Of a stretch of 64,000 nucleotides of DNA, positions 408 to 62,708 are shown in pieces. Position numbers and translations under genes: made by a program. The first letter of the stretch is position 1. Each line of letters opens with the position of its first letter. This DNA is from Hormiphora californensis (Eukaryota; Animalia; Ctenophora): contig CM035357.1 of the NCBI GenBank assembly GCA_020137815.1, positions 5,146,001 through 5,210,000 on the forward strand, given 5' to 3'. The notes under the pieces were generated by a model, which was not told where the DNA came from, ran no database searches, and saw nothing but the letters and a program-made list of their open reading frames with translations.

Positions 408-6627
<6,220 letters not shown>

Positions 6628-16231: not shown

Positions 16232-19200
16232 TCACAGTAACAACCCATTTTTCTTCTTATTTTTCCCCAGTTTCTTCTTCTTGCTGTTCTGTGCAGGAGC
16301 CCACGTGAAATCAGCGGTGAGGGAACTGTCGGAACAGTGTTCTGAACCTATAAACAGTAGAATATGTTATTGTCAGAAATCAAGAAAATCGTTATCATTA
16401 TTTTAAAATATAATGCCCAACCCTAATAACACAAATCTTAATGAACTGGAAACTTAAAAACCTAAAAATAAATCACGTACCAGTTTCCTCGTTGTTCTGT
16501 AGATGATGAAGGAGAAGAAGGGAGCGAGCTGTAGCTCTCTGTTCATCTGTATGTTGGGGACAACGCAGTGACCTACAGGAAACAAACAGTGAATCCAAGC
16601 ATTTGGTAGTTGTACATATTTGACTCGTGATGCTTCTGGTCCCAAAATGTATTTCCTTGGGGACCTGAATTCGATCCAGATTTCTACCGCTGATTGATTT
16701 ACCTTGTGCAGAGTTTTTTAGTGTACCCTGAAACCACTCCGCACATGTTTGTTAGGAATCGTTCCTTGCTGCTCGGGCTCAGTGCTTCAAAACTCTCCCG
16801 ATCACTCCCATCTGTCCCGTCCGGCGGAGAGCAGTCCAACTTGCTGGTACCCGTTTTGAATAACTTTCGTACTGTTTTGGGAGACCTGCATTGGGGAAAG
16901 GATTCTATTCAGGAAATTGAGAAACAAAGATAATTCCGTTCAAAATTGACTGAAAAATGATTCATTCACTGTTCCGAAGATGTATCTCAAATAGAACAAA
17001 CGCTAGAGCTGCTAGAAAAATGTGTAGATTTCCCGTACTACATCTATTTGTGGGGCAAGAGGAAATGATGCGATATCGCGATAAAAATTAACTTTTTAGT
17101 CTTTGCCGATATATTATTCTGATTCAAAATTGTCCTATCACTCTCTCCAAGCTGTATCTCGAACGGGGCCGGCGCTAGAGCTCACAGGAAAATGTCAAGA
17201 GTTTTAGTTGTCAACCTGTATTCTCGTGAGATAAAGAGATGTAGCACACAAGGCTTCGTTCCCAACTCTAATTGACAGTCACGGAGAATTATTCACGTCC
17301 CTCACGTTATAATGTTTTTGTTTTTCCAAACCATCTGTGCAACACAAACTTGACAAGACTAAGTTAGCACTTTGCCATGCTACGCAGTTTGTCGTTCGCG
17401 TAAGCTCACACCGGGCTGAAGAGCCGACACACTGGGAACATGTCAATTAGCACTATGCTTATCTAATTTTCACTACCTCCAGTCATCCTTCCATTGTTCT
17501 TACTCTACTACTTAATAACAGCCCACAAGAAGGACCCATAACTTCAACATGATGTTGTTTCTAGTTCTCTGTGCTCTAACAGCACAAACAGCCGCGGTAG
17601 ACCTCGCATTGGATGCCCTTAGCAGCCCCCAAAAGCTCCTGTCCCTATACCGGGATTATGCCACAAAGTACCACCGAACACCTACCCCTGAGCGGGTCCT
17701 GATCTTCCGGGAAAACCTGAAGAAGATCGTGGAAGGAAACAAACTGGCTACAACGTGGACACTCGGAGTGAACAAGTTTGCTGACATGACCCGGGAGGAG
17801 CGACAGAGTTATCTTGGACTCAACATGACACGGCGAGGATCTCCCAGTAGTGTTGCAGGGATCAGATTAGAGGAGCCTGTCAGCTTGGTGGGCGTTCCTG
17901 CGGAGAAAGACTGGAGGAAGGAAGGAAAGGTAACTGGAGTTAAAGATCAGGCCGCTTGTGGATCCTGTTATACCTTCGGAGCCGTCGGAGTCCTGGAGAT
18001 AAACTATGCCATCAGGACTGGAAAAAGGAAGGACTTTGCGGAGAAGGAGTATTTGGATTGTGTCTACCAGAGAGATGGTTGTGATGGAGGTTGGTCTGAG
18101 CACTGCTGGGACTACTCCGCAAGAGAGGGTCGACTAGCGCTGACAAGGGACCAGAAGTACAGCCCCTTCGATGGGAGGTGCGGAAGCAAGTACAAGAGAA
18201 TGCACAATGGCCTTATTGCATCCAAAATCACTGGTTATACCGAGATATACGGGCGAGGAAAGGAGAGCGCTTTCATTAAAGCCCTATCCCAGGGCTCTGT
18301 TGTTGTTGCCTTTCAGGTGACCGACTACTTTGGCTTCTACCAGAAGGGGGTTATAGCTGACAAAACATGTAACGACATGGGTGACAGCACTGCCAACCAC
18401 GCCGTCACCGGTGTCGGCTACACCCGGACCTCCATGATAATCAAAAACAGCTGGGGATCCGACTGGGGTATGTCTGGGTACTTTGAAACAGCGAGAGGAA
18501 CGGATGACTGTGAGTATTTCAGGTGGGGTTCATGGCCTAACTGGCAGGATACCGGGGTTGTTGACAATGACCCTGATTACCAACCTACTGATGATGATGA
18601 TTGTGTGGATGTCAACCCTGATGGATGTCCCTGTGGCACTGTGAGGTGTGGCGATGGAAACTGCAGGCATGTCCACATGTGCTAAACCCGCCGCAAAGTT
18701 ATTCGCAAGTTTTTTTTTCTTTCTTGAGTGATTCTTGTCTCTGTCTGACTTTGAGTAACAAAACTAAGATATCAGTTACCACAGTTAACCGTTACCACCA
18801 ATACACTCACCACTCATATCTATCCTCCACTTTTTTTCCTTACCAATAGTCAATACCCTACCCACTATTATAAATACTAACTGACTAAATTGATTATGGG
18901 CATAACACATAAAACTGCGTATATGTGGTGTTAGACAAGTCTGTGTAAAATATCAGAATTACCCATTTCGTCGGATGCGGGCCCGTTTTGATTTTCCAGT
19001 CTCCTCGTCATCCTCAAAGGGGTCATCCTCAGCCAGGGAGGCGTGATTAACATTAGCTATCCTCCGTCTAGCTACCCTGCTACTGTTTCTCCCCATTCCT
19101 AACATGGGATCAGGGAGGTTAGTGGAGGGTGGGTTGCTATGGTGACATTTATCAGCATTTTCACCATGATGACCCCCCCCCCCCTCGGATACCGATTATG

Positions 19201-19843: not shown

Positions 19844-21211
19844 GCTAGAAGAGGAAGGATTTAAATTGATGACTTTAGATCTTAAAATTGGGGAAATGGT
19901 CAATAAGCTACATCACAAATCAATTATCAACGATGGAGATAAAATTCAATTCACTGCAAATCGAGAGAGTTAGCCATAAAGAATAAGGTATCGGCTCGAC
20001 AACACTTTCGCAGCTACCTAAAATTCATTTACGAGTGACCCAAACAAGTGAGGCAGGGATAATATATGTGAGTGACCCCAGAGTATGCCATGCACCAAAC
20101 ATAGTCTAATCGAGCAACGTATTATTCAACAATTGTATACATAAATATGTTTTAAAAGCTACAAATTGAATATACACGACACACTCATGCTAATGCGTTT
20201 GAGTAACTATAATAATGCATGGTAGCGGTAATAAAATGTTATCAACTGTCAGACCAATACACAATCATTCCAACAAAGCTATTCTCTAACTCAAAGGTCT
20301 AACAACTCGTCTCTTCTCACCACTTATCCATGCCTTCAAGGAATAGAACACGTTTGACATTTATCGCTTTATCTATCGCTTCCAGTTCTAAACCTATCAT
20401 CTAATATCTATCCCTTTCTCTCTCTCTCTCTCTCCAATATCTCAAATAGAATGGACGGTATAATGGCTAAAGACAAAGTACCCGTGCAAGCACAGAGAGA
20501 GAAACAGGAGAGCAGTGGTAATGGCAATGTATGCAGCAGCAAGCAGCAGAAACAGTATCTCAGACAGCCAGAAGCCCCAAAATCCCCTGACCCGCGCGCA
20601 GAGGATTGAGAGTGAGTATTCGCGCGTTCCGTACATCACTTCATGATGTCAGATTTCCGATCAGTTTCTGTTTACTGGTTCGTATTCAAAATTCAAAGTT
20701 TAGTAGGGACTAAGATAACATGTTTCATTAATCAAATAATATATGAGTAACTACAAATATTCTACCCAGATATTTGAAGAGCGTGCAACAAGAAAAATAC
20801 TGTATCAGTATGAACAGTAAAAACTGCGAAGAACTCTGTCAAGAACCGCAAAATTGGTTTGGCGCCACCCGCCACCGTATGACGTCAGATAAATTAAAAG
20901 GGAAGGCCAACATGCGGAACAAAGTGTAAAAACATAGCTTGCACTAAAATTATTAAAACGGGCGGGGCAAGACTACCCGCACATTAATTAGGGAGAGGGG
21001 TGTCATCAGTGAAAATAGTAGCTGACACGAAGTTTTCATCTCGTTGATGCAGAGTTCAACGCTATCTACGTATTGCTAATTAATATACAATGAGCTTGGG
21101 AGCAGGTAAGACATGGTAAATCTTTAGAGCAGGATATACAATAAAAGACAAAAGTGAAATACTTTTGCCTTGCTGGACCCACCGCCTCAACAAGGCAACA
21201 TGTATGAATTA

Positions 21212-21309
21212 CAGTCGGACCCCCATTTACCGGGATGCCCGGGGGAAAGGGCTTTACCCGGTAAATCAGGATTTCCGGTAAATCGGGGTCGGTAAATCGG
21301 GGTCCGATG
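21212..21309. mobile_element. Tc1/mariner (pogo-like) MITE; relatives at ~8183-8230, ~39830-39911, ~53893-53992
   Basis: TA-CAGTCGGACCCC..TTTACCGG...CGGTAAATCGGGGTCCGA(C)TG-TA. Confidence 0.8.
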
Positions 21310-21440
21310 TAGTAGTACAAGTATAACAGTAGTACATGTACTTCGTATCATGTACTTCGCAGCAAAGAAGGTTCAATAAAAAGGGCGAAAAAGTTAATTA
21401 TGGAGGCTAATTTTTGAAACTGAAAAGGGAAAGAGGGAGT

Positions 21441-21478
<38 letters not shown>

Positions 21479-21534
21479 GAAGGAGAGAGAGAGAGTGAGA
21501 GAGGGATGAGAGGAGAGAGGAGAGAGAGAGAGTT

Positions 21535-21675
<141 letters not shown>

Positions 21676-22404
21676 TGAAATAACAAACACTACAAGGAAC
21701 AATTTTAATTAGCACTTACCTAATGGGGAGATACATGGAGAGGAAAAAGAATGAGAGATGGTGATTGCATTTAGGTCGGTAATATTTTCATTTTTAGGGT
21801 TCAGAGAATGTACACTCACTCTATTCTCATTCATTAGCTGTGAGTTGCAAATCGATGGCTACATCATTGATCTCATCCCAATTTCGTGGGCATGTAGGGC
21901 ATTAGACCCCTATATCCCGCCCTCCCTGTCGACCCGTCGGCAGGGAGGGGGTGACTTCACTAAAATACACTCACTCAATTCTCATTACGTCATCCTTGCA
22001 TTAGATGAGAGTTTTTTCGCAACTTCTCCGTGCCCCTGGTTTCACTGGGGCGGAGTGTTCTTGTGAGACTAAGAATTCTCCCGATGCTGTGAGTTGCAGA
22101 TCGATGAAACACTACAAAGGTAACAAAGGTCATCAGAAATTAGATGCATGTAAGAACATGTTACTTGAGCTGTTGGGCTTGATGAGGCTGTAATAGGGGT
22201 TGTAACATGGTTTAGTTACTAAAGTCCATACTACTACCAACTAAGAACACTACCAATTAGCATCTACATGATCTGAAAGGCCCCATCTGAAATCAGAAAC
22301 GGTTTCACGAAAACAGTCTACCTATTTAACAGAAAGTATAAACATCAACTAACAACGTCCACCATCAATTTACTATAACAATTTTGATAAATCCTTTTTA
22401 ATAA

Positions 22405-23512
22405 ATGCCGCTTGCCTGGAAAACCTTTGTTTTAGCAAAGCCACTCGACCCAGCCGCATCTTCAATAACATTTGCTGACGTTGTCGGACACTATCTCCAC
22501 ATCACTCGGTCTGTTGCAAACCAAAACAAATCTAGTTTTGTTCCACAAGTGGTGGATGATTTGCTGAGATTGTACGACCCAGATGTTTTTTCATGGCCAG
22601 CCAAAGCTCAGGGAGCAAGACGGAGCTTCTTCTTCGGGTATGCTCAATCAAAGATCGATCTGCAAGTCTGCGATTTCAATGAAATCTTTTCATGGCTATT
22701 ATATTATGTAGTCCTTATTGTAGATGTTATTGTTTTGTATAATTAATTCGTTTTCGTTTCAGAAAGATTAAGGATATTCTAGAGAAGACAAAGAAAATAA
22801 CACCATCGACCAAAGTAACTGTAATAGCCAGTTTTAAAGAGAAGCTATGTTCTAATTTTCCCATGCGTCCTGCGACAAAAACATCATTACAAAAGATTTC
22901 CATTGATCAGGTTTGTGTATTAATTAATTATCAATTGTCTCCAGTTTTATACTAGAAATAGAATAACTAGATTTTACCAGATACTTACTTACTTGCTTCT
23001 TATTTCTGGCAATAGTGAAGATCATTTATGAACCTTGTCTAATAACATGTTATCCCAGCAGATTAATATTGATGTCGATACTGATAGTTTACCGTCGGAA
23101 ATCTCTGGTTTTGTTGAACCCATGCGACCGAGAGAAAGGCCTAGCTACATTCCTCAAGAGGTAGTAATCCATAATTCATCTTTTTTGACCATTATTGTTT
23201 CTGCTTAGCTTGTTTAAACTTCTTTGAACTGTAACCCTGTTTCAGGACGATTCTCAATCTCAAGCATCTCTTGTTGACTCGGAATCTCGTGACGCCACCT
23301 TTCAACCCGATTCTCGAGACGCAGATTCCTCGCAGGAATCCTTAGTGGACGGTCTGATAGAAGCAAGGGAAACAATCGTTGTCAGTGATTTCCTAAAACT
23401 CGATTTTGCTGGGCTGGGGAGTGGAGATGTAGAGTGGTGGCCACTCCGAGAGAGCAAGCCATTAAAAACAACTCTTCACGTTGCAAAGAAAAGAAAAAAG
23501 GAGACGCAGTAA
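22405..23512 (+). CDS. Orphan 4-exon gene, ~250 aa, C-terminal basic KKRKK
   Basis: Exons ~22405-22637, 22763-22910, 23062-23160, 23247-23512 join in phase without stops; same structure in the duplicate copy. Confidence 0.72.
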
Positions 23513-23797
23513 GACTGTTCAGTATTAACGCTATATTATGATGTTTTTTAGATAAATGAGAAATGTGTCTGAAAATAAAACCATCTCTGTTTATGTGACT
23601 GGCAGCTATTTAAATCATTATCATTTGTTCCCTTACAAGTTACACACGTACATTCTTTTTCTTTTATTAAGGACACATTTGAAATATGGATTCATTGGAA
23701 TGTTTTTCTTGGTCAGCTTAAACAGCGTCCTCTTGATTAAAGCAAGCTAAAGCGCTTGATTTCAGGGGAAAAACTATAGGACACACGTCATCGTAAT

Positions 23798-26167
23798 GAT
23801 ACATTTGCAGTTTCATATTTGTTTCATTTTGAATGCTCTGTTACACTGACATACACCCGTCTAAGTCTCTCTTTAATCCTAAATCTATCAATTTACAACC
23901 GCATCGCCTAGTCTGGTTCAGTCATTCTGTCAAATAGTGCTCCTTTCCTGTATCTTTCAACACAGTACCTCTAATATCTGATCTCTAACGCACTCAATAC
24001 CTGCTCGTTTTCTTGTACTCAGGTCACGTCCATAATATTGCTCTGTCTCAAAACATACTCCTTGTGCCAATGCTCCTCTATATCCCTAATGATTCCCAAA
24101 ATTTCAAGTTTCTATCTTCAAAACTGTGGTCTCAGTAGCATTAAAACTGTCAAATACATCATTCTGCATTCTGGATACAGAATAACTTTGCGGATGTGTG
24201 ATATAAACGAATTGCCGGGATTCTCCAGACTCTCTCACAATCAGTTCATACATTTGCAGTTTCATATTTGTTTCATTTTGAATGCTCTGTTACACTGACA
24301 TACACCCGTCTAAGTCTCTCTTTAATCCTAAATCTATCAATTTACAACCGCATCGCCTAGTCTGGTTCAGTCATTCTGTCAAATAGTGCTCCTTTCCTGT
24401 ATCTTTCAACACAGTACCTCTAATATCTGATCTCTAACGCACTCAATACCTGCTCGTTTTCTTGTACTCAGGTCACGTCCATAATATTGCTCTGTCTCAA
24501 AACATACTCTTTGTGCCAATGCTCCTCTATATCCCCTAATGATTCCCAAAATTTCAAGTTTCTATCTTCAAAACTGTGGTCTCAGTAGCATTAAAACTGT
24601 CAAATACATCATTCTGCATTCTGGATACAGAATAACTTTGCGGATGTGTGACATAAACGAATTGCCGGGATTCTCCAGACTCTCTCACAATCAGTTCATA
24701 CATTTGCAGTTTCATATTTGTTTCATTTTGAATGCTCTGTTACACTGACATACACCCGTCTAAGTCTCTCTTTAATCCTAAATCTATCAATTTACAACCG
24801 CATCGCCTAGTCTGGTTCAGTCATTCTGTCAAATAGTGCTCCTTTCCTGTATCTTTCAACACAGTACCTCTAATATCTGATCTCTAACGCACTCAATACC
24901 TGCTCGTTTTCTTGTACTCAGGTCACGTCCATAATATTGCTCTGTCTCAAAACATACTCCTTGTGCCAATGCTCCTCTATATCCCCTAATGATTCCCAAA
25001 ATTTCAAGTTTCTATCTTCAAAACTGTGGTCTCAGTAGCATTAAAACTGTCAAATACATCATTCTGCATTCTGGATACAGAATAACTTTGCGGATGTGTG
25101 ACATAAACGAATTGCCGGGATTCTCCAGACTCTCTCACAATCAGTTCATACATTTGCAGTTTCATATTTGTTTCATTTTGAATGCTCTGTTACACTGACA
25201 TACACCCGTCTAAGTCTCTCTTTAATCCTAAATCTATCAATTTACAACCGCATCGCCTAGTCTGGTTCAGTCATTCTGTCAAATAGTGCTCCTTTCCTGT
25301 ATCTTTCAACACAGTACCTCTAATATCTGATCTCTAACGCACTCAATACCTGCTCGTTTTCTTGTACTAGCCACCACCCACCCCTCCACCCCACCCACCT
25401 CCCCCACCCTGGCCCTTGCCAATTTAGAGGACTTTGTGAAACACGCCAGTACAGGGACAATCCTTGTGTTTTGGTGCACTAAGTCGCTTATCGCGTGTAA
25501 CAACTCACAATTGTTCTTATCTGTCCCACCCGTCTTGTCCTATAGAACATCGTACACATTCTAGGGACGCTACAATCTGTCCCACCTCTTATTTGTATTT
25601 GATCATTTTTGTTCATCTTGATCTCTACTGGAAGTGGAAATGGTACACCTCTCATCTGATCACCAACAACATCACGGTACCAATCATACATCAAAAAGCT
25701 GTAAGTTCATTTGTCTGTATTGTCTGTTCATCTATTGTGTACCATTGATAATGATTCCGGAGTAAACCTTACCAATCAATAATTTAATTAGAGCTACTAT
25801 AGACAGACTACCCCAGACCCAAGCTTGAGAAGTGTCCACTCGACGGACCGTCGTCGTAACAAACAAACGAACAGGCCTACCTGCACAGCCACCCAAGCTT
25901 GAAAATGTGCCCCCTAACTTGTCTTTTTGCTTATTCGCAAGATAACTGCAATGTCCTCACGGGGCGGAGATGCGAAGAGTGCAACCGACCTTTAACCGTG
26001 GGGGCTGCGTAAGTGTCTTGCAAGTACAATGACTGACTGACAATATGAAAGCAATGATTTCAACTGACCACAACACGATGACAGACGCTATGACGAGGTT
26101 GCAATGTCGTTCTGCCCTAACGGGCAGAGTTTGGCACGCTATAACCTATCTGTACCACCACCACCAC
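23798..26167 (+). mobile_element. Non-coding retro-insertion A: 5' tandem array, conserved core, (CCA)n tail
   Basis: 14-bp TSD CACGTCATCGTAAT (23784-23797, 26168-26181); empty site at ~56562 in the duplicate. Confidence 0.82.
23800..25367. repeat. Tandem array, ~450-bp unit x3.5
   Basis: CATTTGCAGTTTCATATTTG recurs at 23802, 24251, 24701, 25151; units nearly identical. Confidence 0.95.
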
Positions 26168-26795
26168 CACGTCATCGTAATCATCACTGCGCTGGCAAGC
26201 GCAAAAGTCACCATCCCCCTCCTGGCTCCTTCAGCCGTTTATACCATTGAAAACTCATTAACAATCGAAAAATCGGCAGCAAATGGCATTTTTACGCCTT
26301 TATAGGTTGATACTCCATTCTTAAACCCACACATCAGACAAAACAAGCATCCACGATTAGGCACAAAAAGTTTTTCACTTTTTTTTGGCATACGTTGCAG
26401 GCCCCTTATAATATAATATAAGGGGCCTGGAGGGAATACCGCGCTGGGGGGGAATACATAAACAATCATATCTCCGGTTCCAGATAAGGTACAGAAATCG
26501 TTTTGGTAGCGTTGGAAAGAGGAAGATAACAGCTTTAAAATGCAACCGGTTTCAGGTCTCTATCTTATCAGGAACAGGAGATATGAACCAAACTCCGCAA
26601 AATCGAGTGCGGTAAAATGAAAAAATTCGAGATTTTAATTCAAATTTGAAACAAAGTGTCCCTGCAGGGATCTGTGACGTCACTTTTTGAAAACAACCCA
26701 TCTTTGAACGGTTATTGCTCAGCCTCCTGAAGTCCAATTTACTTCTCTCAAAAACAGCAAGGTAGATAATTGTCAGATCTAACAGCTAGTGAAAG

Positions 26796-26829
26796 CTTTT
26801 CAACACTACTTTAAACAAATTAATTTGAG
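26796..26829 (+). other. Spliced-leader-like sequence at the LINE 5' end
   Basis: CTTTTCAACACTACTTTAAACAAATTAATTTGAG, 45 nt before the ORF1 ATG; its last 25 nt recur exactly at 62865-62889. Matches my recollection of ctenophore SL exons ending AATTTGAG; needs checking. Confidence 0.78.
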
Positions 26830-26874
26830 GCGCGCGCCCGTGCGTTTTCGAATATCCCTCTGTAGGCTCTAGCC

Positions 26875-28278
26875 ATGCCAGATATGACAAATATGGCTAC
26901 ACCTACTGATGACAAAAGTGATGGCAATACCCTTGCCGTTGGAAATCTTGTAAACGCAGCAGATCCTCTCACCAAAAAGGTCCTGTCTGCCTACCGCCAT
27001 GATGTGGATTACACCAAGAATCTGGACATCATCCGCACATTCAATTGTGCCCACCTGGAAGCCGCTGCATCATTTTTCGGTGCATCCCCCGGCTCACATG
27101 CAGACAAAACTAAGCGGTACCAGAACCGCACTACACTAGCTGACTACATCATCATTCAGCTGGAAAGTCATTTTCCCTGTGATTGTGAGGGCTGCGGAGA
27201 AGGATATGCAGTTAAACTAGGTGAATCTCCTCGTGTCCGCTGTTTTCTTTGTCAGCAGGGGTCTCATGATTGCGAGGCTATGGATGGCACCCTTGGGTCC
27301 TTGACGGGGTCGGTCTGGTTATGTCTGCCGTGCAAGGACAAAAACAACAAAATTGAAACCTTCATGTGCAACCGAAGTGCTGAAGATCCAGAATCAGTGC
27401 TATCTGATGAGGAATACGAGTTCAAAATCAGTCCGAAGGCAGGCCGTAGTGGTAAGAAGAAGAGGAAGAAGAAACAAGCTCCTGTCAAGAAAGATCCTGA
27501 TGATCTGGTAACTCCTGTTGGTGGAGTGACAGTTCTAAAAGATGTGGATCTTGGAGACGTATCTTCTGATGGAGAGGTGCAACAGCAAGGTGTTCCCAAA
27601 TTCAGCAATGTTTGTGAACGTTATCTACTGAGAGACTGTCCTCATGGCCCAAATGGTGACAAGTTGATTAGTGGTAAGCCTTGCAGCAAGGAACATCCCC
27701 AGAAATGCCTCCGTTATTGTCAGTACGGAACGGCAACTCGTTCTGGGTGTAACTTTGGTGATAAGTGTCAGAATTTTCACCCACCTCTCTGCCATAATTC
27801 TGAGATCTCCCGAGTCTGTACCGACAAAGAATGTAAAGACACACATTTAAAGAACACTCGGAGAAGTGAAGTAGCCCCTGCTAAGGGTAATTCATTGAAG
27901 AGTACTGGTAACAAAACCAGTGATCTCTCTCAGAAAGTGGAGCAGAAAGAGCCCCGTCGTTCAGCTCCTCCAAACCCAAAGAAGAAGAAGAAGAAGATTA
28001 ACAAAACTGAGACCGATCCCCGTGCCGCGACCAATGACATCCGTTCACAAGAGGATTTTCTCATGGCATTGATGGCCTCAGTGAGGGACGAGATTCTTCG
28101 AGAAGTAAAGACGTCACTGAACTCATCTCTACAGTCCTTCAGGGAAGAGATGACGAGGGAACACACACCCCGGCCCAAACATCTGACACTCACACAACCA
28201 GGCCTGAACACCCCGACCAACTACCAAGGGGTTCTGGAACGGTTTCGGAATTACTCCTCATCAACGCCCGCAGTTTAA
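26875..28278 (+). CDS. LINE ORF1 with PHD-like finger and CCCH-type zinc fingers
   Basis: CEGC..CFLCQQGSHDC..WLCLPC (PHD-like); C-x7-C-xn-C-x3-H repeats; basic tracts. Confidence 0.85.
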   Translation: MPDMTNMATPTDDKSDGNTLAVGNLVNAADPLTKKVLSAYRHDVDYTKNLDIIRTFNCAHLEAAASFFGASPGSHADKTKRYQNRTTLADYIIIQLESHFPCDCEGCGEGYAVKLGESPRVRCFLCQQGSHDCEAMDGTLGSLTGSVWLCLPCKDKNNKIETFMCNRSAEDPESVLSDEEYEFKISPKAGRSGKKKRKKKQAPVKKDPDDLVTPVGGVTVLKDVDLGDVSSDGEVQQQGVPKFSNVCERYLLRDCPHGPNGDKLISGKPCSKEHPQKCLRYCQYGTATRSGCNFGDKCQNFHPPLCHNSEISRVCTDKECKDTHLKNTRRSEVAPAKGNSLKSTGNKTSDLSQKVEQKEPRRSAPPNPKKKKKKINKTETDPRAATNDIRSQEDFLMALMASVRDEILREVKTSLNSSLQSFREEMTREHTPRPKHLTLTQPGLNTPTNYQGVLERFRNYSSSTPAV

Positions 28279-31187
28279 CGCCTTCCGCGGCTAGTGACTG
28301 TCGGTGGAAGTTTTCTTTTATCAAGGACTCATTGGAGAATCCGTCAATACCCATCCTTTGCACCGGTATTACGGAGACCTGGTGGCATGATGATTTCTCT
28401 GATGCCCAATTGGAGATTGAAGGCTTTCACCTAACTCGTTGTGACAGAGCGGGTAGAAGAGGTGGCGGTTGTGCACTCTACATTAACAATCAACTGACCC
28501 CTTCCTCTGAGTTCAGATTCTCAGACACGTCCAATAGTGCGGCTGCTGTATACATCAAGGAGACCCACTCGGTTTTCTGTGTTGTGTACAGGGCGCCATC
28601 TTCCCCTGCGAATGACCTTTTTGATGATCTATCCCGTTTCATTGATCAGTGCGAACTCGACAAGGGTTGTCCTGACATCTATGTTATGGGCGACTTCAAT
28701 ATGCCAGACATAGACTGGGGAACACTCACTGGAGGACCTAACCCTTGCTCACAGATGCTACTAAAATTTGTGAACTCATATTTTCTCACTCAGCTTGTTG
28801 ACTCCCCAACACGGGGCTTGAATATTCTAGACCTCGTTCTCACCAACCGGCCAGACTATGTCTTCAAAACTGAGGTATCGGAGTCGTGTATTTCTGACCA
28901 TAATATGATCAGCTCTACACTTGGGTTTGGTATCTTACCCACTCGTCAATCAGACCATCGATTCACGGACTTTGATATTTACAACTTTCATGAGGCTAAC
29001 TTCCCTGAAATGTGTAGGGAGTTAGACCAGATCGACTGGCTAGCACTCGCCGACATCTGCGATGACGGTGATGGTTCTGATTTCGTTCAACTTTTCACCC
29101 TGACTGTTCTACAGGTCTTATCTCACCACTCTCGTAAGAAGAAGGCCCGTAAAAAAAGAAGGGACCCTGTTCTCAGGAAATTGAAAGTGAAACAGCGGAG
29201 TTTGAATAAACGGATTGCTCTTGCACGGCAGAATAAACCTCACCTTTTGCCACAGCTCGAGATTGGTGTTTCCAGAATTACTTGGGAAATTTTGTGCCAC
29301 ATTTCTCAGCGACTTGACAGTGATGAAAACGAGGCGCTGACAAAACTCAAAGCTAACCCAAAATTCTTCTGGTCATACGCCAACCGAAAGAGGAAGACCC
29401 GGTCACGTATACCTCCTTTACAGACAAGTGATGGTTCACTCACTGACGTTCCCGCTATGAAGGCAGAACTGTTTCAATCTCAATTCACATCTGTTTTCAG
29501 CACTCCTTCAAACTCTTCCTCAACAGCTGCAGACAACATCATTCCTTCTACATGCAGCCTTTCAGACATCGTTTTCTCCACCGCTGATATTGAAAAGGCA
29601 CTACATGACCTCAATCCCTATTCAGCCGGCCCTCCAGGAGATGTACCTGCCAGAATTTTACGTGACTGCCGATCATCGCTGTCCTACCCCCTATCCATCT
29701 TATGGGACAAATCGTTTGATTCTGGTATTGTACCACCCTGTCTGAAACTTCAGTACATTGCACCCCTCTACAAAAAGGGTCCTAAAATGAAAGCTGAAAA
29801 TTACCGCCCGATCTCCCTCACCAGTCACATTGCCAAGACATTTGAACGGGTTGTAAGATCTCAAATGGTGTCATACTTTGAATCAGAGAACTTGTTTAAC
29901 GAGTCTCAGCATGGGTTTAGAAGCAAGAGGAGCTGCTTATCCCAACTCACTCGTCACATTGACAATATTCTGAACAATCTCAACGACCTTCTTGAAGTGG
30001 ATGTAATCTACTTGGACTTCGAGAAGGCGTTTGATAAAGTTGACATCGGTATACTTCTCGAAAAGCTGCAGAGATATGGAGTTAAGGGCAAACTCCTTGA
30101 ATGGATCCGCAGCTTCCTACTAAACCGGAAACAAACGGTCTTAGTCGACGGCGTAGCGTCTTCTTTTGCAGAAGTCAGAAGTGGGGTCCCACAAGGGACT
30201 GTTCTCGGTCCACTTTTATTTCTGATCTATGTAATTGACCTGGAATCCGTAATCAAACACGGTTCTTCTTTGTCGTTCGCTGATGACACTAAAATCTTCT
30301 CTGCTATCCGTACTATGGTTGACAAATTGAACCTACAGGAGGATCTGAACAGTGTGATAACCTGGGCTGACGCTAACAATATGTCCTTGCACCAGTCAAA
30401 GTTCGAGGTCATGAATTTCACCCTGAATCACACCAGTTCGCTTAGAGAAGTACCGTTCAGTGCTGAGAACTATTCCTATCAACTCTCTGATGGGAGGTTC
30501 ATCGATCCAACAGACACTGTCCGAGACTTAGGTGTTCTACTCTCGAGTGATGGTCAATGGTCGGCCCAAATATCTCGAGTTGTTACCACGGCTAGTCGGG
30601 TTGCTGGATGGACATTAAGTGCATTTAGATCCAGAACTCGCCGCACCATGATGACTCTTTACAAGTCACTGGTGCGTCCCCATCTTGACTACTGTTGCAC
30701 ACTGTGGTCACCTTCCAAAAATGGGGATATTAGTCGTGTTGAGGATATTCAACGATCGTACACCCGTAAGATCGTTGGTCTCAAGGGGCTGAACTACTGG
30801 CAACGTCTTCAAACCCTGGGACTTTTGTCGCTTCAGCGCCGACGTGAGAGGTACACTATGATTCTTGTGTGGAAAGTGTACAACAATGAGATACCCAATA
30901 GTACTGACATGTGTTTCGTCGACAGGCACCGCTCTGGCCCTAGTGCTGTCGTCCCTCGATACTCGTACGAGGCTCAACGATCTAACCTGTCGCTATATGA
31001 ACAATCATTTGCGGTACTGGGGGCAAGGTTGTGGAACACTTTGCCTCGATCTGTAAAGGAGGCCCCAACTCTTTATCAGTTCAAATCTCAGCTAGGTAGT
31101 TTCCTCTCTACCATTCCGGATACACCCCCCATCAGCGGTTATCCTGCTCAAGCAAACAGTAACTCAATACTAGAGTGGTGTCCATGA
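28038..31187 (+). CDS. LINE ORF2, AP endonuclease plus reverse transcriptase (CR1/L2-group-like), intact; frame open from 28038
   Basis: INARSL, ITETW, GDFN, LDLVL, SDH (APE); NYRPISL, QHGF, DFEKAFD, GVPQGTVLGP, FADD, DLGV (RT). Confidence 0.93.
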   Translation, partial: HPFTRGFSHGIDGLSEGRDSSRSKDVTELISTVLQGRDDEGTHTPAQTSDTHTTRPEHPDQLPRGSGTVSELLLINARSLTPSAASDCRWKFSFIKDSLENPSIPILCTGITETWWHDDFSDAQLEIEGFHLTRCDRAGRRGGGCALYINNQLTPSSEFRFSDTSNSAAAVYIKETHSVFCVVYRAPSSPANDLFDDLSRFIDQCELDKGCPDIYVMGDFNMPDIDWGTLTGGPNPCSQMLLKFVNSYFLTQLVDSPTRGLNILDLVLTNRPDYVFKTEVSESCISDHNMISSTLGFGILPTRQSDHRFTDFDIYNFHEANFPEMCRELDQIDWLALADICDDGDGSDFVQLFTLTVLQVLSHHSRKKKARKKRRDPVLRKLKVKQRSLNKRIALARQNKPHLLPQLEIGVSRITWEILCHISQRLDSDENEALTKLKANPKFFWSYANRKRKTRSRIPPLQTSDGSLTDVPAMKAELFQSQFTSVFSTPSNSSSTAADNIIPSTCSLSDIVFSTADIEKALHDLNPYSAGPPGDVPARILRDCRSSLSYPLSILWDKSFDSGIVPPCLKLQYIAPLYKKGPKMKAENYRPISLTSHIAKTFERVVRSQMVSYFESENLFNESQHGFRSKRSCLSQLTRHIDNILNNLNDLLEVDVIYLDFEKAFDKVDIGILLEKLQRYGVKGKLLEWIRSFLLNRKQTVLVDGVASSFAEVRSGVPQGTVLGPLLFLIYVIDLESVIKHGSSLSFADDTKIFSAIRTMVDKLNLQEDLNSVITWADANNMSLHQSKFEVMNFTLNHTSSLREVPFSAENYSYQLSDGRFIDPTDTVRDLGVLLSSDGQWSAQISRVVTTASRVAGWTLSAFRSRTRRTMMTLYKSLVRPHLDYCCTLWSPSKNGDISRVEDIQRSYTRKIVGLKGLNYWQRLQTLGLLSLQRRRERYTMILVWKVYNNEIPNSTDMCFVDRHRSGPSAVVPRYSYEAQRSNLSLYEQSFAVLGARLWNTLPRSVKEAPTLYQFKSQLGSFLSTIPDTPPISGYPAQANSNSILEWCP

Positions 31188-31880
31188 TGCGTGTTAGTGT
31201 GTTATGTGTCGCTGTGCTGTGAGTGTACTGAGTATTGACTCTTTTTAGGAGGTTTATCTTTTTAAATATCCTGTGTGTTACGCAAATTTATGAATTTCAT
31301 TTCAATCAAGTCAAACGGACTTCAGGGGCCAAAGTTATAAGCACCGCCGTTTTTTCGCTCGCAAAGTTATCTTCGACCTAGCCGGGCCCGTCCTGAGCTC
31401 AGGCCAAACGCGCGCGCGGCATTCCCTTCAGTCCCCTCGTTGCGGGGGTGCGCGCATGAGGGGGCTGCAGCGCATTCCAACACTTTTTTCAGCCAAAAAT
31501 CGGGACTTAAAAAACGCGCCTGAGCTGCGAATTTTGGAAAGTAAGCCGCGCCGCGCGTAGTGTCGCAGCTTTAAAGCAAAAAGTACGCGTTCAACCAAAT
31601 TCTTCCACAAATAACTTCCCATAAAGCAAGCGACTCAAAGACCAAAGTATTACTTTGGTCTTTAAGTAATCACACATTTTCTTTTCGTCCGATTTTACCG
31701 TGTGAACCAAGTAACGATTGACTGATATAACGGGCTAACAAATAAATAATGAAAACAATACAAACATTAAAATAGGATAAAATAATTAAAAATGATCCAC
31801 CTTCATCAATGGTCGTCACTCAGTCCAATGATTTTTATTTTCAGTTGTCCTAAAGCTACCATACTCCATAACAATCGTAC

Positions 31881-32699
31881 GGGGGGGGGCCGGCTGAAGT
31901 TTTTGAAGTCAACTTCAAAAACTTCAAAGCGAAACTTAGGGTGGAAAACTTCAAAAACTTCAAAAACTTCAAAAACTCATATCTCCTAAACCGTTGGAGA
32001 TAGGCCCTATGTTGCTTCATAACTCTTATATAAACTTGCATATTCCGAACAAGATGCACCCCTTTAAAAAGCCTATAGTCACTCATAAACCATTAAAACT
32101 GGTCTAGCCCAAAAAAAGTCATGCGCACACACAAAATTATGAAAATATCCCATTATCCCTCGAATTAGATGAGGTGGAGACTTCATTTTGGCACGTACCC
32201 CCACTAACTCGAGGCCGCTGATGATTTTGGTGTCCATATTTTTTCACTACTCCCTTCATAAAAAATTTGCATTTTGTGAGACTGGCAAAAAGGGTGTGGC
32301 CCCAAAAAAATTTTTGAAAATTTACTTCATAACTTTTAAACACTTTCTTAGCATTTTCTAGGCAATTTTTTGAGTTATAGAATGAAAATAAAATCTGTTT
32401 TTACAAAAAATTTAAATCTTTTACACCAAATTGTGCCATGGATTTCATGGCTAGGAATCATTGTAAATATCCTAATTTGTGGTAGAAAAAGGGAAGACAA
32501 GGACGGATAACTTTGCCACAATATGTATTAAGCATGAAACTAACCTAAACAAGTGTAATAATAGTCACTGATAGCATATAAAAGTAGTTTAGAGTTTTTG
32601 AAGTTTTTGAAGTTTTTGAAGTCAACTTCAAAAACTTCAAAAACTCAAAAAGTAGGGTGGAAAACTTCAAACTTCAAAAACTTCAGCCGGCCCCCCCCC
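31881..32699. mobile_element. MULE-like non-autonomous element with G-run TIRs and 9-bp subterminal repeats
   Basis: G9-CCGGCTGAAGTTTTTGAAGT inverted ends; TSD (C)AATCGTAC; empty site ~57500. Confidence 0.85.
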
Positions 32700-32831
32700 C
32701 AATCGTACAATATTCTCAACTGTCCATCACTTTTCACAATACAACCATGGCACTTTTTTTAATTGCCAAGTTCATCAGTTCATATTGGTAACCAGGCCAC
32801 GGTAACACCTCTTGGTAACCATGGTAACCCA

Positions 32832-35800
32832 TCACCAATCCATCTTATTCTCCTTATTCTCTTCTTTGACCGCTCCACTTTTACTGTGGCACTCCTCCGC
32901 AAACTTTCTAAACAGGTCTACGCTGGATTTTAGGGATGTTTTAGCGTAGTCAGGGACCTTATTGCCTGACTCCTCCCCTTCCTTCCAGTTCCCCATCTCT
33001 TCTACCAACTGTTCCAAAGTCTGAACACGGGGGAGGAATGTAAATATTGGTGATAAAAAGGATTCATATCCACAAAAAAGGGGGAAAGATCGGTAGAACT
33101 TCGACATTTAGGGCAGTTCATTTTAGGGCATGTTGTCCAATTAGCATGAAGCGGGCACACGGAAATACTGCACTTACCGGGACAGTAAAGGGATCAAAAG
33201 TGTCCACGTCCTTCGCTAGGAACGGGATACAGACCCGCCCAGTTTTGGGATGAACAGAGAAGGGAGATTTGAGAAGATGGTTGAGGCCCTTTGTCACATT
33301 GACATCCAACCGGGGATAACACAGCTGAAATAGAGGGGATATTGGGAAACTCGATCGTTGTATGTATGAGATTGTGCTGTACACTGTAATGCAGGAGTCT
33401 CCCGTTTCACTTGTCTCATATATAAGACCGTCCTCTTCGCACCGGGCCGGGGTACAGTCAGTGCCTGACAACGTTTCACGTACTGTACAGTGTACAGTAT
33501 GTGAAACTAGAGACTCCTGTTATAGTACAGAGCTTTTCTTGTTCAATCACTTTAAATTTTGATATGAAGTTTCTAGCTGATCACCTGCAGAACAACTTCT
33601 TTGATCGCATTATTTTTCTGCTTCCTCGCTTTAGCATATTCAGCCCAGGCACTTTTTAACAGGCTCCATTTCTTCTTGCTATCACCTGGACTTGCAGCCC
33701 AGTCTGCCATGTCATTTTGAATGGTCTTGGCCGGGAACATGTTTAGCACCTGCAGAGGGGGAGTTTAGAGTTGGAATAATAGTAAATGCTGAACCCGGCC
33801 GACCCGATTTGAGTGCAAAACAGGGTCTAACGCCGCTGGACAGTGGACACTAGGGTGTGCTAAGTGAAAATTTTGTCGACTTGGCCAATAGTTTAAGGGT
33901 AGATATGAAACTATGGACAATTGTCTACTACATCCTGAAATCGGAATTGGGGTAGTGTATGTCAATTACGTGGGCCAGGCGATTAAAAAAGTTTAATTTT
34001 TTACCGAAAAAAGGAAAATATTTGTGTTTTACACCAGTGTTTGGCATGTTCTTGATATCAAATTTTTATGGTCAGGGTCGTGTTCAGCGGTTTGATACCG
34101 ATCAGAATGGATGTGTATCATGAAAGTTAGCCAAAGTTCATTTTTTACCTGAACATGTTCATTTTGGACCAAAAATGTTCATTTTTGACTAAAGATGGTC
34201 ATTTTGGTCATTTTCTTCAATTTTGAGAGCTTTTTCATGAACGGGATCGTGTTCAGCAGGTCAAAATTAGTCGGTTACAACCAGAATTTGCTTTCCGACA
34301 AATAAAATCTCAAAAAGTTAAAATTCGTCTCCACTAATACTGCAAAGTAGGAAAATGTGCAAGAAAAAAAGATGAAAAAAAAATGTTTTCATTATAAAAT
34401 GGAGTTCTGAAGGTACATACTGGAAATAATGGTTGTACTGGTTCTCATGAGGCGATTCATATGTGTGGTTTTTTCGAAATAACGCCCCAAAAAACATTTT
34501 TTGATATGAATATGCCCATATATGGGCATACATCGGCCCACGTAATTGGGCCAGGGTAGGACTAAAATTTTTTTACCAAATGTTTTAGAATGATCGTAGG
34601 AACTCATTCTAGGGGTAAACTTTGTGAAAATTGGATTTGATTTATGAGTTGGGAAAAATAGCACACCCTAGTGGACACTGATAATAGAGCACAGTGGTCT
34701 TTTGGTGGTCACTAAGAATTTTACGAAAAATTGTTTTTGAACCTATCTGGTAGCTTTTCGAGCGTAGAATCCAATGCACCCCTCACTCATGCCTTGAATT
34801 TTTGAGGAAAGTGGTGTTTTTCCAAAAAGAAGGGTAATTGAAAAATTTTCGAAAAATTTTTTATGAGCTTATCTGGTAGCTTTTTTTTGTTTTGTACAAA
34901 CTCTTTTATTTTATTTTATAAAAAAAGTCTAACCTGGCAAGCTTTTTTGACGTAGAATCAAATATACCCCTCACTCATGCCTTGATTTTTTGAGGAAAGT
35001 GGTGTTTTTTCAGTTTTTAGTCTTTTTAGGCTTCTTTGACAACCATACTTAAAATTTAGCTGGAGCAGGTGAAATGGGGATCCATAACAATTTAAATGTG
35101 GTTGATAGTAAGAAATCGAACAAATTTATATCTCATTCAAAAATTTTTTTTCAAACTTCATCCAGGGCGTTTTTATGGTCAAATAACGAAGAAAACTTGA
35201 TTTTTCGACCATAATATACAATAGTACGCGCTTGAAACCTTTTTTATCTGAAAGGCCAGACAATTTCCTATCTTTTGGTCTATAGGACATCGATGAGGTT
35301 CGATGAGGAGGCTGGGGAGAAAGCGTTAAAGAAGGCATGTATGGTTACTTTAAAAAAAAACGATCATTTAAAAGTTTGAGACCTAACTAAACACGTTTCC
35401 CGACCTTATTTTACACGTAGAATCGATTGCCGATAGAATTAGAACTCTAATATTGAAGGAAAACGGTGAAAACGCGTTTTTTCGTCTTATACATACACGC
35501 CTTCTTTAACGCGTTCTCCCCAGCCTCCTCATCGAACCTCATCGATGCCCCATAGACCAAAAGATAGGAAATTGTCTGGCCTTTCAGATAAAAAAGGTTT
35601 CAAGTGAGTACTATTGTATATTATGGTCGAAAAATCAAGTTTTCTTCGTTTTTTGACCATAAAAACGCCCTGGATGAAGTTTGAAGAAAAATTTTTGACT
35701 GAGATATAAATTTGTTCTATTTCTTACTATCAACCACATTTAAATTTTTGTGGGTCCCAATTTTAAGTATGGTTGTCAAAAAAAATTTTTTCCTTAATGA

Positions 35801-37114
35801 CCACCTACTCCCATGAAAAAGGCCACTGTGTAGAGGTTGATATAGTCTAAAGTCTTCCAAGACCTGAAATTCACAGAAAACAATTTGACGATATACCTGA
35901 TTCCTCTTCTCAGGGGTGGACAAGAAATCCTGGTTACGAATCATCAGCTCGTCAAAATACCCCGCTGTAATCTCTACGGCTCTCTCAATAGCAGGGTGGA
36001 GGGCTCCAGGGAGGAGAACCTTCTTCGACTGGTTATCTCCCCCAACCACCACAGACATGTAGTCAGCTATTGCTCCCCTTCCTGACAACAATTGGGGGAA
36101 GATATAGGTAACGATATAAAACAAGGGAGTGAGTGATGGGAATTGTGTAGCTCACACGCTCTGTGAGGGTTCGGGAGGAAGAATACCAAACATTGGCTCA
36201 GTATCCAACTTGTCTGCTTACCAGAGTTGTTTAGCTTCCTGGCCGTTTCATCAGCAATCCAACAATGAATACCCCTCCTTCCCGAGTAGACCCATAGGAT
36301 TTGGGAAAACCCGAAATCTGTCCTCAGCGCCTCATCTAGGACTTTAACTGCAATCTTCATAAAGACCCAACAGCTTGGACAAATATTGGCCTCCTGGCAA
36401 CACGACCTGCAGTGGGTGATTATTAGGGACCAACTTGCAAAAAGCACCAGGGTATATAGCAGTATGTGTAATGTGATTGTAGGAGTGAAGCTAAACGGGA
36501 AAATTAGGAAACATTGGGGCTGATGAAAGAGAGGTCTTTGTTACACCCACCTCACATCATCGTAATCTGTCATGTCAATATCAAACACAACCTCTCTCTC
36601 CATCGCTGTGAATGCCCCACTTTTAAATGCCTTGTGGTCCTTAGGTTTGGCATTGTAAACCGCACCAACGTCAATCTTAAACGGGTTCACTGCACGAAGC
36701 TCCTTCTTGAATTCGTCCTGGTTCGAAAAGGACTTGTACCTGGAGGAGGGGGTTTAGGAGGTGATAACCAAAGGTGATAACCAAATCTTGGTTGATTTCC
36801 AGGAATGTTATGTAGGGGAGAGAAGGACAATGAGGGGGTAGATTTTGTCTAGCTCAACCCACTTTCCGTACGCTCCTCTTTACAAATGTAAAGGAGGGTT
36901 AGAAAAGGGTAGAGTAAGGACCCCTTACTCAACAAATAACGAGGGGTAGATTAAGATCTCACCGTAGGTATATATCCCCGTTTAGGGTGAAAGAGAACTC
37001 CCGTTTAGCAAGGTAGTCTGGTGAGCCATAGGATAACCATTTGATATAGGGGCTATACGGGAACAACTTGGAGTAGTAGATCTTCAGATGTTCCTCTATG
37101 TCGGCAACCGGCAT
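32832..37114 (-). CDS. PRIM1: DNA primase small (catalytic) subunit, ~7 exons
   Basis: KREFSFTL..DIYLRY, FDIDMTDYDDVR, VYSGRRGIHCW, YPRLDVNVTKGLNHLLKSPFSVHPKTGRVCIP. Confidence 0.96.
33851..34670. mobile_element. hAT-type non-autonomous element in a PRIM1 intron
   Basis: TAGGGTGTGCTA...TAGCACACCCTA; 8-bp TSD GTGGACAC. Confidence 0.88.
34690..35830. mobile_element. Transib/RAG-like non-autonomous element
   Basis: Ends CACAGTGG...CCACTGTG; 5-bp TSD TAGAG (34685-34689, 35831-35835); single TAGAG at the empty site ~58685; internal ~300-bp inverted repeat. Confidence 0.85.
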
Positions 37115-37920
37115 GGTATCTGATATTTGAGATATTTGGGTAGAATCGTGGTGTTTATAATTGGGGTAGAGATGTTTCGGGATCAGCTGATTTAGCGAGT
37201 TGGTAGTTGAAAAAAGTAAACACTGTGATCTAAGAGATCGATCTAAAAATAATCTTACTCAGAGAGGTACACAAAACTAAGAGAGCAAAGCTAATACAAC
37301 GATATATTACCATGAGAAATCCTCTTCAATACATATTCGATTTTCATGTGAAATTTCATTTTTGGACAATATTTCGTTCATACATCTCTTCCCAAAAAAA
37401 CAAACTATGCCTGCACATGTGTCTACAACCTCTCTCTCTCTCTCCAGTACCCTAAGATCTCTCTTCATCTACGTATTTTACAACTAACTACAACGTACTA
37501 GAAACTGTGGTGAATATGATGAGACATGTGTGGGGACTAGATCTAGATGTGTGAACTAGATGTGTGAGGTTTTATCTTGCCTTGTTTTGAACAAAACGAC
37601 TTTTATCATGGAGAGATGGGAGCAGTAATATATATAATAGAAAGCATAGATCATGGAGACTCAAAACCTGTCAGGACAATGCTGTGACAGTTCAAAACTA
37701 GTATTGTTTTGGCGAGAGAAACTCCACACAAATACACACACACACACACACAGACAAACAAAACCGATCTCTCTCTCTTCTCCAAAGCAGGAGTTGTTAT
37801 GTTCAATGCCCCTCCTTTAGGGGCCGAACAAGGCAAAACAGGTGATGGGCTGTAAAAGTAGCATTTAATCCTAGGGCCAGCCGCGGACCGTGATGATGAA
37901 AAAGGCTCCAGTGAGTTGGT

Positions 37921-39064
37921 TTAGGCTGATGGCATGGGGATGGCAGTATCTCCGTTGTTTGTAGGCTGTTCTGTTACTGTTTCTCCCATTGTCCTCTCTT
38001 CTGTCTCTTCTAGATCTTCCGGCCTGTTAAGAAGTTGGGTCAGACTCATGGGAGAGAATGTGTACATATGCATACCTCTGTTATGTGTGAGTGTGAATGT
38101 GCTATGGGAATATGCGGGTGATTGTATTGTGTTTCCTACGGCTTTCTCTCTCCCTCCCCCTCTCTCTCTCTCCCTCCCCCTCCCCCTCCCGCCTCTCTCT
38201 CCCTCCCTCGCTCTCTCCCCTACATACCTGACATCTGTGTAGTCCTCCTGTTCTCGGTCCAGTTTCCCACAGCAGTTGCAGCAACAGAAGCAGCAACAGC
38301 AACAGAAGCAACAACAGGTCAGGATAAAGATTATCGTTCCTACCACCTGGAGAGAAGGGGTGGTTAAATCTCAAATACGCCAAACTCATCCGTTCAAATG
38401 CCAAACAGCTTAATTTCACCATTCAATTTCGTCATCCATGTCAAATTTCAGAAATTCAGTCCGTGTGAGAGAAAGAGCCGTGCGCCAAATGCTGACAATA
38501 CATACTGCGCGCGGCTATCACGAACTCCTGCTAGTCGCAAAAGATGTCCTGCAAATATTGTCCCACATTGCGCTGTGTGTGCTACCAGCAGAGCGCAAGA
38601 GAGAAAGAAGTAGAGACGACAGCAGGACGATTTTAAATCCAACGATTTCCGGCACAATCAGATACGTCACAGAATACTAGAGATAGTTAACGGACCGAAA
38701 CATCTGATTTATTGCAGTTTCTAGAGAAATGCATTTCTCTTGAAATCTGTCAGACCTTACACACACGAACATGACGTATGATACACACAGCAATCTAGTG
38801 GCCGCGGACTAATGATTGTTAATTGGCCTAATTAGGTCTGACACGATCTCTCACACGTACACACTGTGGCGGTTGTTAAGATTTCCTAGTATTTCCGATT
38901 CTAGGAAAGTTTAGCATCGCTTACTTGTATTTCAAATTTGAAGTTCAAGACATCAATTTTACAAATTCTTAGTGATAAAATTTTCAATTTGAAATTTGAA
39001 ATTTCCAAGATCTGCTACTTACTCTGCAGAAGGTGCTGTTCATACAGTAGTAGATACCGACGTT
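37921..39064 (-). CDS. DNAJC5: Cysteine string protein (DnaJC5), last three exons only; J-domain exons absent
   Basis: NVGIYYCMNSTFCR/VVGTIIFILTCCCFCCCCCFCCCNCCGK.../..TVTEQP..AIPMPSA*. Confidence 0.85.
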
Positions 39065-52933: not shown

Positions 52934-52973
<40 letters not shown>

Positions 52974-54099
52974 GGAGAGCAGTGGTAATGGCAATGTATG
53001 CAGCAGCAAGCAGAAACAGTATCTCAGACAGCCAGAAGCCCCAAAATTCCCTGACCCGCGCGCAGAGGATTGAGAGTGAGTATTCGCGCGTTCCGTACAT
53101 CACTTCATGATGTCAGATTTCCGATCAGTTTCTGTTTATTACTGGTTCGTATTCAAACTTCAAAGTTTATACTCTGATTTTAAATAACTGTCGTTTTTTA
53201 GAGTTTTCAAATTTCTTTAAATGACCATAAGTCCGGTTCCTGATGAGATAGAGACTTGAAATTTGGAGGTTACGAAGATCTTGCTAAGTTCTTCCGAACC
53301 TCCAAATTTCAAGTCGCTATCTTATCAGGAACCGGAGATATGACAAATTTTGTTATTTCAGGGGGGTGACAGTTTCAAAAAATCCGACTTTAGTTGGGAC
53401 TAAGATAACAGGTTTCTTTAATCAAATAATATATGAGTAACTACAAATATTCTACCCAGATATTTGAAGAGCGTGCAACAAGAAAAAAACTGTATCAGTA
53501 TGAACAGTAAAAACTGCGACGAACTCTGTCAAGAACCGCAAAATTGGTTTGGCGCCACCGTATGACGTCAGATAAATTAAAAGGGAGGGCCAACATGCGG
53601 AACAAAGTGTAAAAACATAGCTTGCACTAAAATTATTAAAACGGGCGGGGCAAGACTACCCGCACATTAATTAGGGAGAGGGGTGTCATCAGTGAAAATA
53701 GTAGCTGACACGAAGTTTTCAGCTCGCTGATGCAGAGTTCAACCCTATCTCTGGCCTACACTAATTAATAAGATACAATGAGCTTGGGAGCAGGTAAGAC
53801 ATGATAAATCTTTAGAGCAGGATATACAAGACAAAAGTGAAATACTTTTGCCTTGCTGGACCCACCGCCTCAACAAGGCAGCATGTATGAATTACAGTCG
53901 GACCCCCATTTACCGGGATGCTCGGGGGAAAGGGTTTTACCGGGAAAACAGGATTCCCGGTATATCGGGGCCGGTAAATCGGGGTCCGATGTAGTAGTAC
54001 AAGTATAACAGTAGTACATATGTACTTCGTAGCAAAGAAGGTTCAATAAAAAGGGCGAAAAAGTTAATTACTGGAGGCTAATTTCTTGGAAACCTGAAA

Positions 54100-54192
<93 letters not shown>

Positions 54193-56319: not shown

Positions 56320-56750
56320 GACTGTTCAGTATTAACGCTATATTATGATGTTTTTTAGATAAATGAGAAATGTGTCTAAAAATAAAACCATCTCTGTTTA
56401 TATGACTGACAGCTATTTAAATCATTATCATTTGTTCCCTTACACACGTACATTCTTTTTCTTTTATTAAGGACACATTTGAACAATGGATTCATTGGAA
56501 TGAACAGCGTCCTCTCGATTAAAGCAAGCTACAGCGCTTGCGGGGTAAAAACTATAGGACACACGTCATCGTAATCATCACTGCGCTGGCAGGCGCAAAA
56601 GTCACCATCCCCCTGCTTGATGCTTCAGCCGTTCATACCATTGAAAACTCATTTACAATAGAAAAACCGGCAGCAAATGGCGTTTTCACGCCTTTAGAGG
56701 TTGATACTCCATTCTTAAACCCACAATCCACACATCAGATGCCAAAACAA

Positions 56751-62511: not shown

Positions 62512-62552
<41 letters not shown>

Positions 62553-62708
62553 AAACCGATCTCTCTCTCTTCTCCAAAGCAGGAGTTGTTATGTTCAATC
62601 CCCCCTCCTTTAGGGGCCGAACAAGGCAAAACAGGTGATGGGCTGTAAAAGTAGCATTTAATCCTAGGGCCAGCCGCGGACCGTGATGATGAAAAAGGCT
62701 CCAGTGAT

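Follow-up and report, generated by a model that had tools for sequence, protein, structure and literature searches.

How does a retrotransposon come to begin with a spliced leader (SL), and does the leader still do anything there? The question is raised by a 64-kb window of the genome of the ctenophore Hormiphora californensis (the whole stretch of 64,000 nucleotides (nt) analysed, contig CM035357.1, to which all coordinates below refer), in which a CR1-type long interspersed nuclear element (LINE), read on the plus strand, is headed by the 3' part of an SL exon. An earlier note, made from the letters of the window, had proposed that the element was copied from a trans-spliced RNA and could live without a promoter by using the SL machinery. 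We consider it likely that the element was reverse-transcribed from trans-spliced RNA, since the copy begins exactly with the SL, as do distantly related ctenophore LINEs, and that it receives a fresh leader in each cycle.

The leader and the boundaries of the element

The relic at 26796-26829 is identical at 34 of 34 positions to the 3' end of the H. californensis leader consensus, which is carried by 56% of the Iso-Seq reads of this species (PMC8527503), and it also matches the exon of an SL-RNA gene (locus L068, see below); the first 9 of the SL's 43 nt are missing. It occurs once in the window at up to three mismatches and in none of 100 shuffles. The earlier identification of the motif as a ctenophore SL is thus borne out by alignment with the published consensus and by its position at the 5' end of diverse mRNAs: most of 95 RNA-like loci begin with it, and in run X22, whose RNA nature is guessed, it precedes diverse sequences. 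The window SL is not itself an SL-RNA gene, which would show a GT donor with an intron and a repeated unit; the UTR of the LINE comes next instead.

Empty-site contigs in three runs (X1, X5 and X7, which are all the DNA runs in a set of four runs examined) join 26795 directly to 31304, with no letters shared. By this joint the insertion covers 26796-31303, and its first base is the first retained base of the SL. Because the empty site has no SL, the leader arrived with the element and was absent from the target. The 5' boundary that had been drawn at the leader is therefore exact, while the 3' end, placed at 31187, fell short of the true one at 31303.

Between these boundaries lies an intact element, as the earlier note had held. 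A 5' untranslated region (UTR) of 45 nt (26830-26874), the length first given for it, starts with a GC hairpin predicted by RNA folding and contains a pyrimidine-rich, acceptor-like TAG at 26863-26865. Open reading frame 1 (ORF1; 26875-28278, 467 amino acids) has seven homologues at 49-82% and no Pfam family at E 0.1, so that its domain names, a PHD-like Cys/His-rich N-terminal part and CCCH-like central motifs, are readings of the alignment by eye. ORF2 (28038-31187, an open frame of 1,049 codons) matches Exo_endo_phos, Exo_endo_phos_2 and RVT_1 above the Pfam cut-off, with an apurinic/apyrimidinic-type endonuclease (APE) at about 28365-28910 and a reverse transcriptase (RT) at about 29784-30431, which we class as CR1-type; its closest named relatives are Mnemiopsis proteins at 39-43%. 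The 3' UTR (31188-31303) ends in two ATTTC units and no poly(A). A search for a target-site duplication found nothing beyond 6-nt chance matches, and the duplication at the joint is 0 bp. The element is thus an APE-type LINE, with ORF1 and an APE-RT ORF2 intact, and it has the CR1-clade trait of a short tandem-repeat 3' end without a target-site duplication.

The first ATG of ORF2 does not come before the middle of the APE domain. A slippery heptamer, G GAT TTT, stands in phase at 28053-28059, where a -1 frameshift into ORF2 is predicted, and the same heptamer is found in a relative (L063). All seven two-ORF SL-headed LINEs examined (the window element, L020, L029, L032, L049, L063 and L066), which belong to two lineages, have a -1-frame ORF2 that overlaps ORF1 with an in-phase slippery heptamer, a frequency that has no chance control; most have no usable ATG before APE. 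Programmed -1 ribosomal frameshifting is accordingly a predicted feature of SL-headed LINEs.

Spliced-leader heads on other ctenophore LINEs

When metagenome contigs were scanned for an exact 25 nt of the SL, 107 stretches matched, of which 106 were stored as loci, 80 with full flanks; by assembly types inferred from content, 95 loci come from RNA-type assemblies and 11, with genomic flanks, from two DNA-type assemblies. RNA-type contigs mostly start with the SL, followed by a host ORF, and 11 of 15 non-LINE loci tested match ordinary host Pfam families. Only 2 of the 95 are of LINE type: L009, with the SL at the contig start, and L063, whose ORF1 is a 31% relative of that of the window element and whose SL is preceded by 369 nt of flank, so that the contig is either a read-through transcript or DNA. 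The composition of the 11 DNA-type loci is another: 8 head LINE sequences, 2 probably do so, and 1 is an SL-RNA/5S array; no host-mRNA retrocopy was recognised among them. APE or APE-RT is encoded, by Pfam, in L029, L032, L049 and L066, to which L020 is related; the UTR of L032 recurs at 92% in L098 and at 76% in L105; and L054 has an ORF related to that of L009, a family whose modelled structure (pLDDT, the predicted local distance difference test, 67) best matches human LINE-1 ORF1p (E 6e-6). L096 and L101 are counted as probable LINE heads only through a hairpin motif in the UTR. As far as ctenophore LINE copies were sampled, an SL head is a common feature of them.

In the SL-RNA gene (L068) the exon is followed by a GTAAG donor, and the tandem unit, of 778 bp, also carries a linked 5S rRNA gene. 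By this gene the exon is 43 nt long, with AG only at its two ends. Rfam gave no match to its SL RNA, and the SL pattern had no matches in viral and prokaryote collections.

These elements belong to more than one RT lineage. In a quick RT tree of 34 rows, from which two long-branch beetle rows and others were left out, the window RT and Mnemiopsis proteins make up a group with a support of 99. Its sister (Shimodaira-Hasegawa-like approximate likelihood ratio, SH-aLRT, 86) consists of two bird LINE proteins that we take to be CR1, the tree having no Repbase references; a tree without the window row gives the same grouping (97/90). The RTs of L029, L032 and L049 fall apart from that of the window and are presumably L2-like by CR1/L2 motif signatures. 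The approximately unbiased test rules against a single clade of these four SL-headed RTs (p-AU 1e-71): SL-headed elements span at least two distant RT lineages.

Some further units were seen among these sequences. L009, L054 and P0128-P0152 are SL-headed, about 1.2 kb long and carry an L1-ORF1p-like frame as their sole ORF; in L054 a short tandem repeat ends the unit soon after the stop codon. This suggests that units of the L009/L054 type are non-autonomous, ORF1-only elements. The ORF1 of the L009 family was considered as kin of the L029 ORF1 and proved unrelated. A small GC hairpin in the first 50 nt after the SL is common to L009, L054, L096 and L101, and a hairpin directly after the SL occurs also in the window element and in a second insertion in the window (see below).

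The proposed renewal of the leader and its alternatives

The state of the leader across copies bears on whether it is renewed. In 13 genomic-type copies the SL is always joined at the last base of the exon, and its ragged 5' ends leave 25-43 nt: at least 38 of the 43 nt are kept in 9 of the 13, and 1-18 nt are lost from the 5' end in 12 of them. At 167 positions outside the search pattern these copies agree with the SL gene; in the 150 nt after the SL, members of one family differ at 9-67 positions. No second (tandem) relic was present in any of 108 sequences.

Copies of the window family were compared over 26785-26990 in the DNA runs of two organisms, A and B, four runs in all. Contigs running from SL to UTR occur in all four runs and include the UTR of a diverged sister subfamily; most overlap the SL by fewer than 31 letters, and only record 12 of X12 has 31 or more letters on both sides. 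Per run, 15-21 contigs leave the SL into unlike sequences, and the consensus upstream reads the remainder of the SL. Within the SL no variant letters at 5% or more are listed, the first being at 26831. One X12 contig joins the end of the SL to 26866, just after the internal TAG at 26863-26865. A search of metagenome contigs with the ORF1 alignment gave 120 pattern matches, none of them confirmed.

Reverse transcription of an SL-bearing RNA, as the earlier note had proposed, is the simplest origin for an identical leader, an exact boundary and SL heads on other LINE copies. That the leader is renewed in each cycle may be argued with less force, from the identical SL on diverged families, the lack of tandem relics and of SL variants at 5% or more, and the one contig with an alternative acceptor. 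Such a cycle would begin with a transcript over the genomic relic, which might come from host read-through, from a short promoter within the element or from the SL itself acting as promoter. The SL small nuclear ribonucleoprotein would then splice a new capped leader at the terminal AG of the relic, presumably recognised as the first AG to follow 40 nt that are AT-rich and contain no AG. ORF1p would be made, and the APE-RT protein would follow through the predicted -1 frameshift; target-primed reverse transcription would enter the leader and leave off its outermost 0-18 nt at the 5' end, and products of this kind are seen in the genomic copies. Each new copy would again begin with the SL, so that trimmed leaders are reset and never stack.

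LINE internal promoters can span a few dozen bases, as in Drosophila jockey-group elements. The claim that the element has no room for a promoter does not, therefore, follow from a 45-nt UTR. For dinoflagellate retrogenes, moreover, it is the SL that has been suggested to act as promoter (PMC5585692). A bolder proposition is that several ctenophore LINE lineages gave up promoters, the relic being a trans-splice acceptor that turns host read-through into capped full-length element mRNA, and that most of the hundreds of genomic leader matches are LINE 5' ends; this may be so, but we would put it forward only tentatively.

Several observations weigh against copying with renewal. The conservation of the SL is partly circular, because an exact 25-nt match was the condition for choosing loci and truncation was counted from the first mismatch; as the search went through the SL, full-length copies without it lie outside its view, and the division of the loci into RNA and DNA types is itself inferred. 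The acceptor offered by the relic would be GAG, and better YAG sites are retained just downstream (26863-26865 in the window; TTTCAG or TTTTAG in L054, L063 and L101), a retention that in genomic copies also fits no re-splicing. The alternative junction in X12 is a single contig with 4 nt of microhomology, for which deletion is also an explanation. In X1 and X5 an internally deleted SL variant (at 26819) has a fixed upstream flank, with a depth in X1 of 235 against 99 for an intact junction contig, so a damaged SL can persist. No RNA was seen over the window element, X22 having no cover of its body and being uninformative on expression; acceptor and start site were thus not observed.

The retained YAG sites would be accounted for if the element had captured the SL and now passed it on as DNA, the leader serving, in whole or in part, as an internal promoter or start site that selection keeps unchanged, with no new trans-splicing and no need of a GAG acceptor. 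An SL exon is said to act as a promoter element in Ascaris, a role for which we found no supporting paper. For dinoflagellate SL relics a promoter role has been proposed (PMC5585692). Inheritance would, however, require that the SL was captured separately by two or more distant RT lineages and by a third ORF1 type, each time staying identical to the present SL gene, and the loss of 1-18 nt seen in nearly all genomic-type copies would erode the leader; the one contig in which the SL stands at another acceptor also speaks against it. On balance we regard this explanation as rather unlikely, if the most serious of those that compete with renewal.

More doubtful still is a scheme in which rare masters carry an ordinary promoter and an outron upstream of a normal acceptor, so that trans-splicing strips them and SL-headed copies are mostly dead ends. 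It follows standard trans-splicing logic, SL-selected searches are blind to such masters, and an SL is present on about 30% of transposable-element Iso-Seq reads in Hydra (PMC12220107; 10.1101/2024.03.13.584568). Yet no alternative 5' end at 26830 appears among the 24 of 68 loose ends listed for the four DNA runs, and many diverged SL-headed families with intact ORFs would be hard to sustain if daughters never became masters. Site-specific insertion into SL-RNA genes, for which SL-exon-targeting elements without long terminal repeats (non-LTR elements) offer a model (PMC4640811), or a single event of template switching from SL RNA is very improbable, as the former is refuted at the window locus by the SL-less empty site, upstream flanks vary between copies and differ from the SL/5S spacer, no SL intron follows the 3' end, the endonuclease is APE and not the restriction-like type (RLE), and the junction lies at the last base of the exon in 13 of 13 copies.

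Precedents, neighbouring features and meaning

Likenesses to renewal by trans-splicing, or to its products, exist in several known systems. In Hydra the SL is likewise found on LINE RNA, including a full-length CR1 transcript with SL-B1, but is reported at the RNA level, whereas in the ctenophore copies it is the genomic 5' end (PMC12220107). Retrogenes with SL relics in dinoflagellates share the fixation of the SL in DNA via reverse transcription of mature RNA, and re-splicing as well as promoter roles have been proposed for them; they are host genes with stacked relics, in contrast to autonomous LINEs with single leaders (PMC5585692, citing Slamovits and Keeling 2008). In NeSL, SLACS, CRE and CZAR an SL exon also lies directly 5' of a non-LTR element, but there the SL belongs to the target gene and the enzyme is RLE, while the ctenophore SL arrives with an APE-type element at unrelated sites (PMC4640811). 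Membership of the window element in the NeSL/SLACS/CRE group was considered and rejected, given its SL-less empty site, flanks unlike the SL/5S unit and an N-terminal APE in place of a restriction-like endonuclease. RNA of the C. elegans retrotransposon Cer1 receives SL1, but Cer1 is an LTR element in which trans-splicing is confined to the spliced 2.4-kb RNA and does not extend to the genomic RNA of 8 kb (PMC3315495).

With CR1-clade LINEs the window element shares two ORFs, APE and RT and a short-repeat 3' end, and its RT falls near bird sequences that we take to be CR1-like (PMC4120745, PMC4245944); for that clade, ORF1 types (PMC4120745) and short target-site duplications of 3-5 bp or none (PMC4245944) have been described. 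It is unlike them in its 5' SL, its 45-nt UTR, an ORF2 that follows a slippery site and lacks a start codon, and the CCCH-like motifs of ORF1. In the literature searched we found no report, for ctenophores or any other animal, of LINE copies whose genomic 5' end is an SL, and nothing on SL-headed LINEs in the accessible parts of PMC7986045, PMC9311404, PMC12460157 and PMC4824033; older papers, the supplement of PMC8527503 or Repbase may mention them. SLs on transposon RNA, SL-relic retrogenes and SL-gene-targeting elements are known already, and the SL-headed LINEs of ctenophores are a variant of these.

The host sequence of the insertion is itself layered. The LINE was received by nested repeats resembling miniature inverted-repeat transposable elements (MITEs), the outer of which (26385-31480, no strand assigned) has imperfect inverted ends and a 9-bp duplication (26376-26384 and 31481-31489), by an empty paralogous site and joints. 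This outer repeat is missing from a segmental duplicate near 57134, and it encloses a middle repeat element at about 26411-31437. Joints from 26404-26418 to 31433-31456, together with very high depth in the DNA runs, mark the nested repeats as high-copy.

A second SL relic, of 25 nt (62865-62889, plus strand) and too short for the 34-mer search at three mismatches, heads a separate insertion in the segmental duplicate: it begins where the duplicate alignment ends, and the paralogue at 38075 continues without it. The insertion (62865-64000) has no match to the window element or to the 106 SL loci, and its likeness to the L063 ORF1 is weak (E 0.02, with a profile score below shuffles). It has a hairpin directly after the SL and noisy-looking sequence downstream.

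Other features of the window stand apart from the leader. A segmental duplication pairs about 20000-38075 with 52400-62866 at about 90% identity, with primase-like gene pieces (by eye) in both copies and differing insertions. At 3976-6114 a GIY-YIG-like ORF (4634-5416, minus strand; by eye Penelope-like) lies between 340-nt inverted repeats that are 99% alike; at 23799-25368 a 450-bp unit is repeated in tandem, nearly unchanged, about 3.5 times, an array that the paralogue lacks; and at 17519-18685 an ORF of 388 codons without introns, by eye that of a papain-like protease, is a possible retrogene.

SL-headed LINEs are real and, as far as sampled, general in ctenophores; a promoter-less cycle for them is a hypothesis. 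They may account for the leader matches known from two ctenophore genomes, 718 in Hormiphora and 491 in Mnemiopsis (PMC8527503). Caution is advisable in this respect, as genomic SL matches need not be SL-RNA genes; conversely, the SL offers a sequence tag by which full-length ctenophore LINEs may be located. LINEs must restore a complete 5' end in each cycle; the means known for this are an internal promoter, tandem monomers, and self-cleavage that frees the RNA from a host transcript. If the proposed cycle is true, a capped leader supplied by the host and renewed by trans-splicing would be a further solution to the 5'-end problem, employed across distant LINE lineages in an animal.

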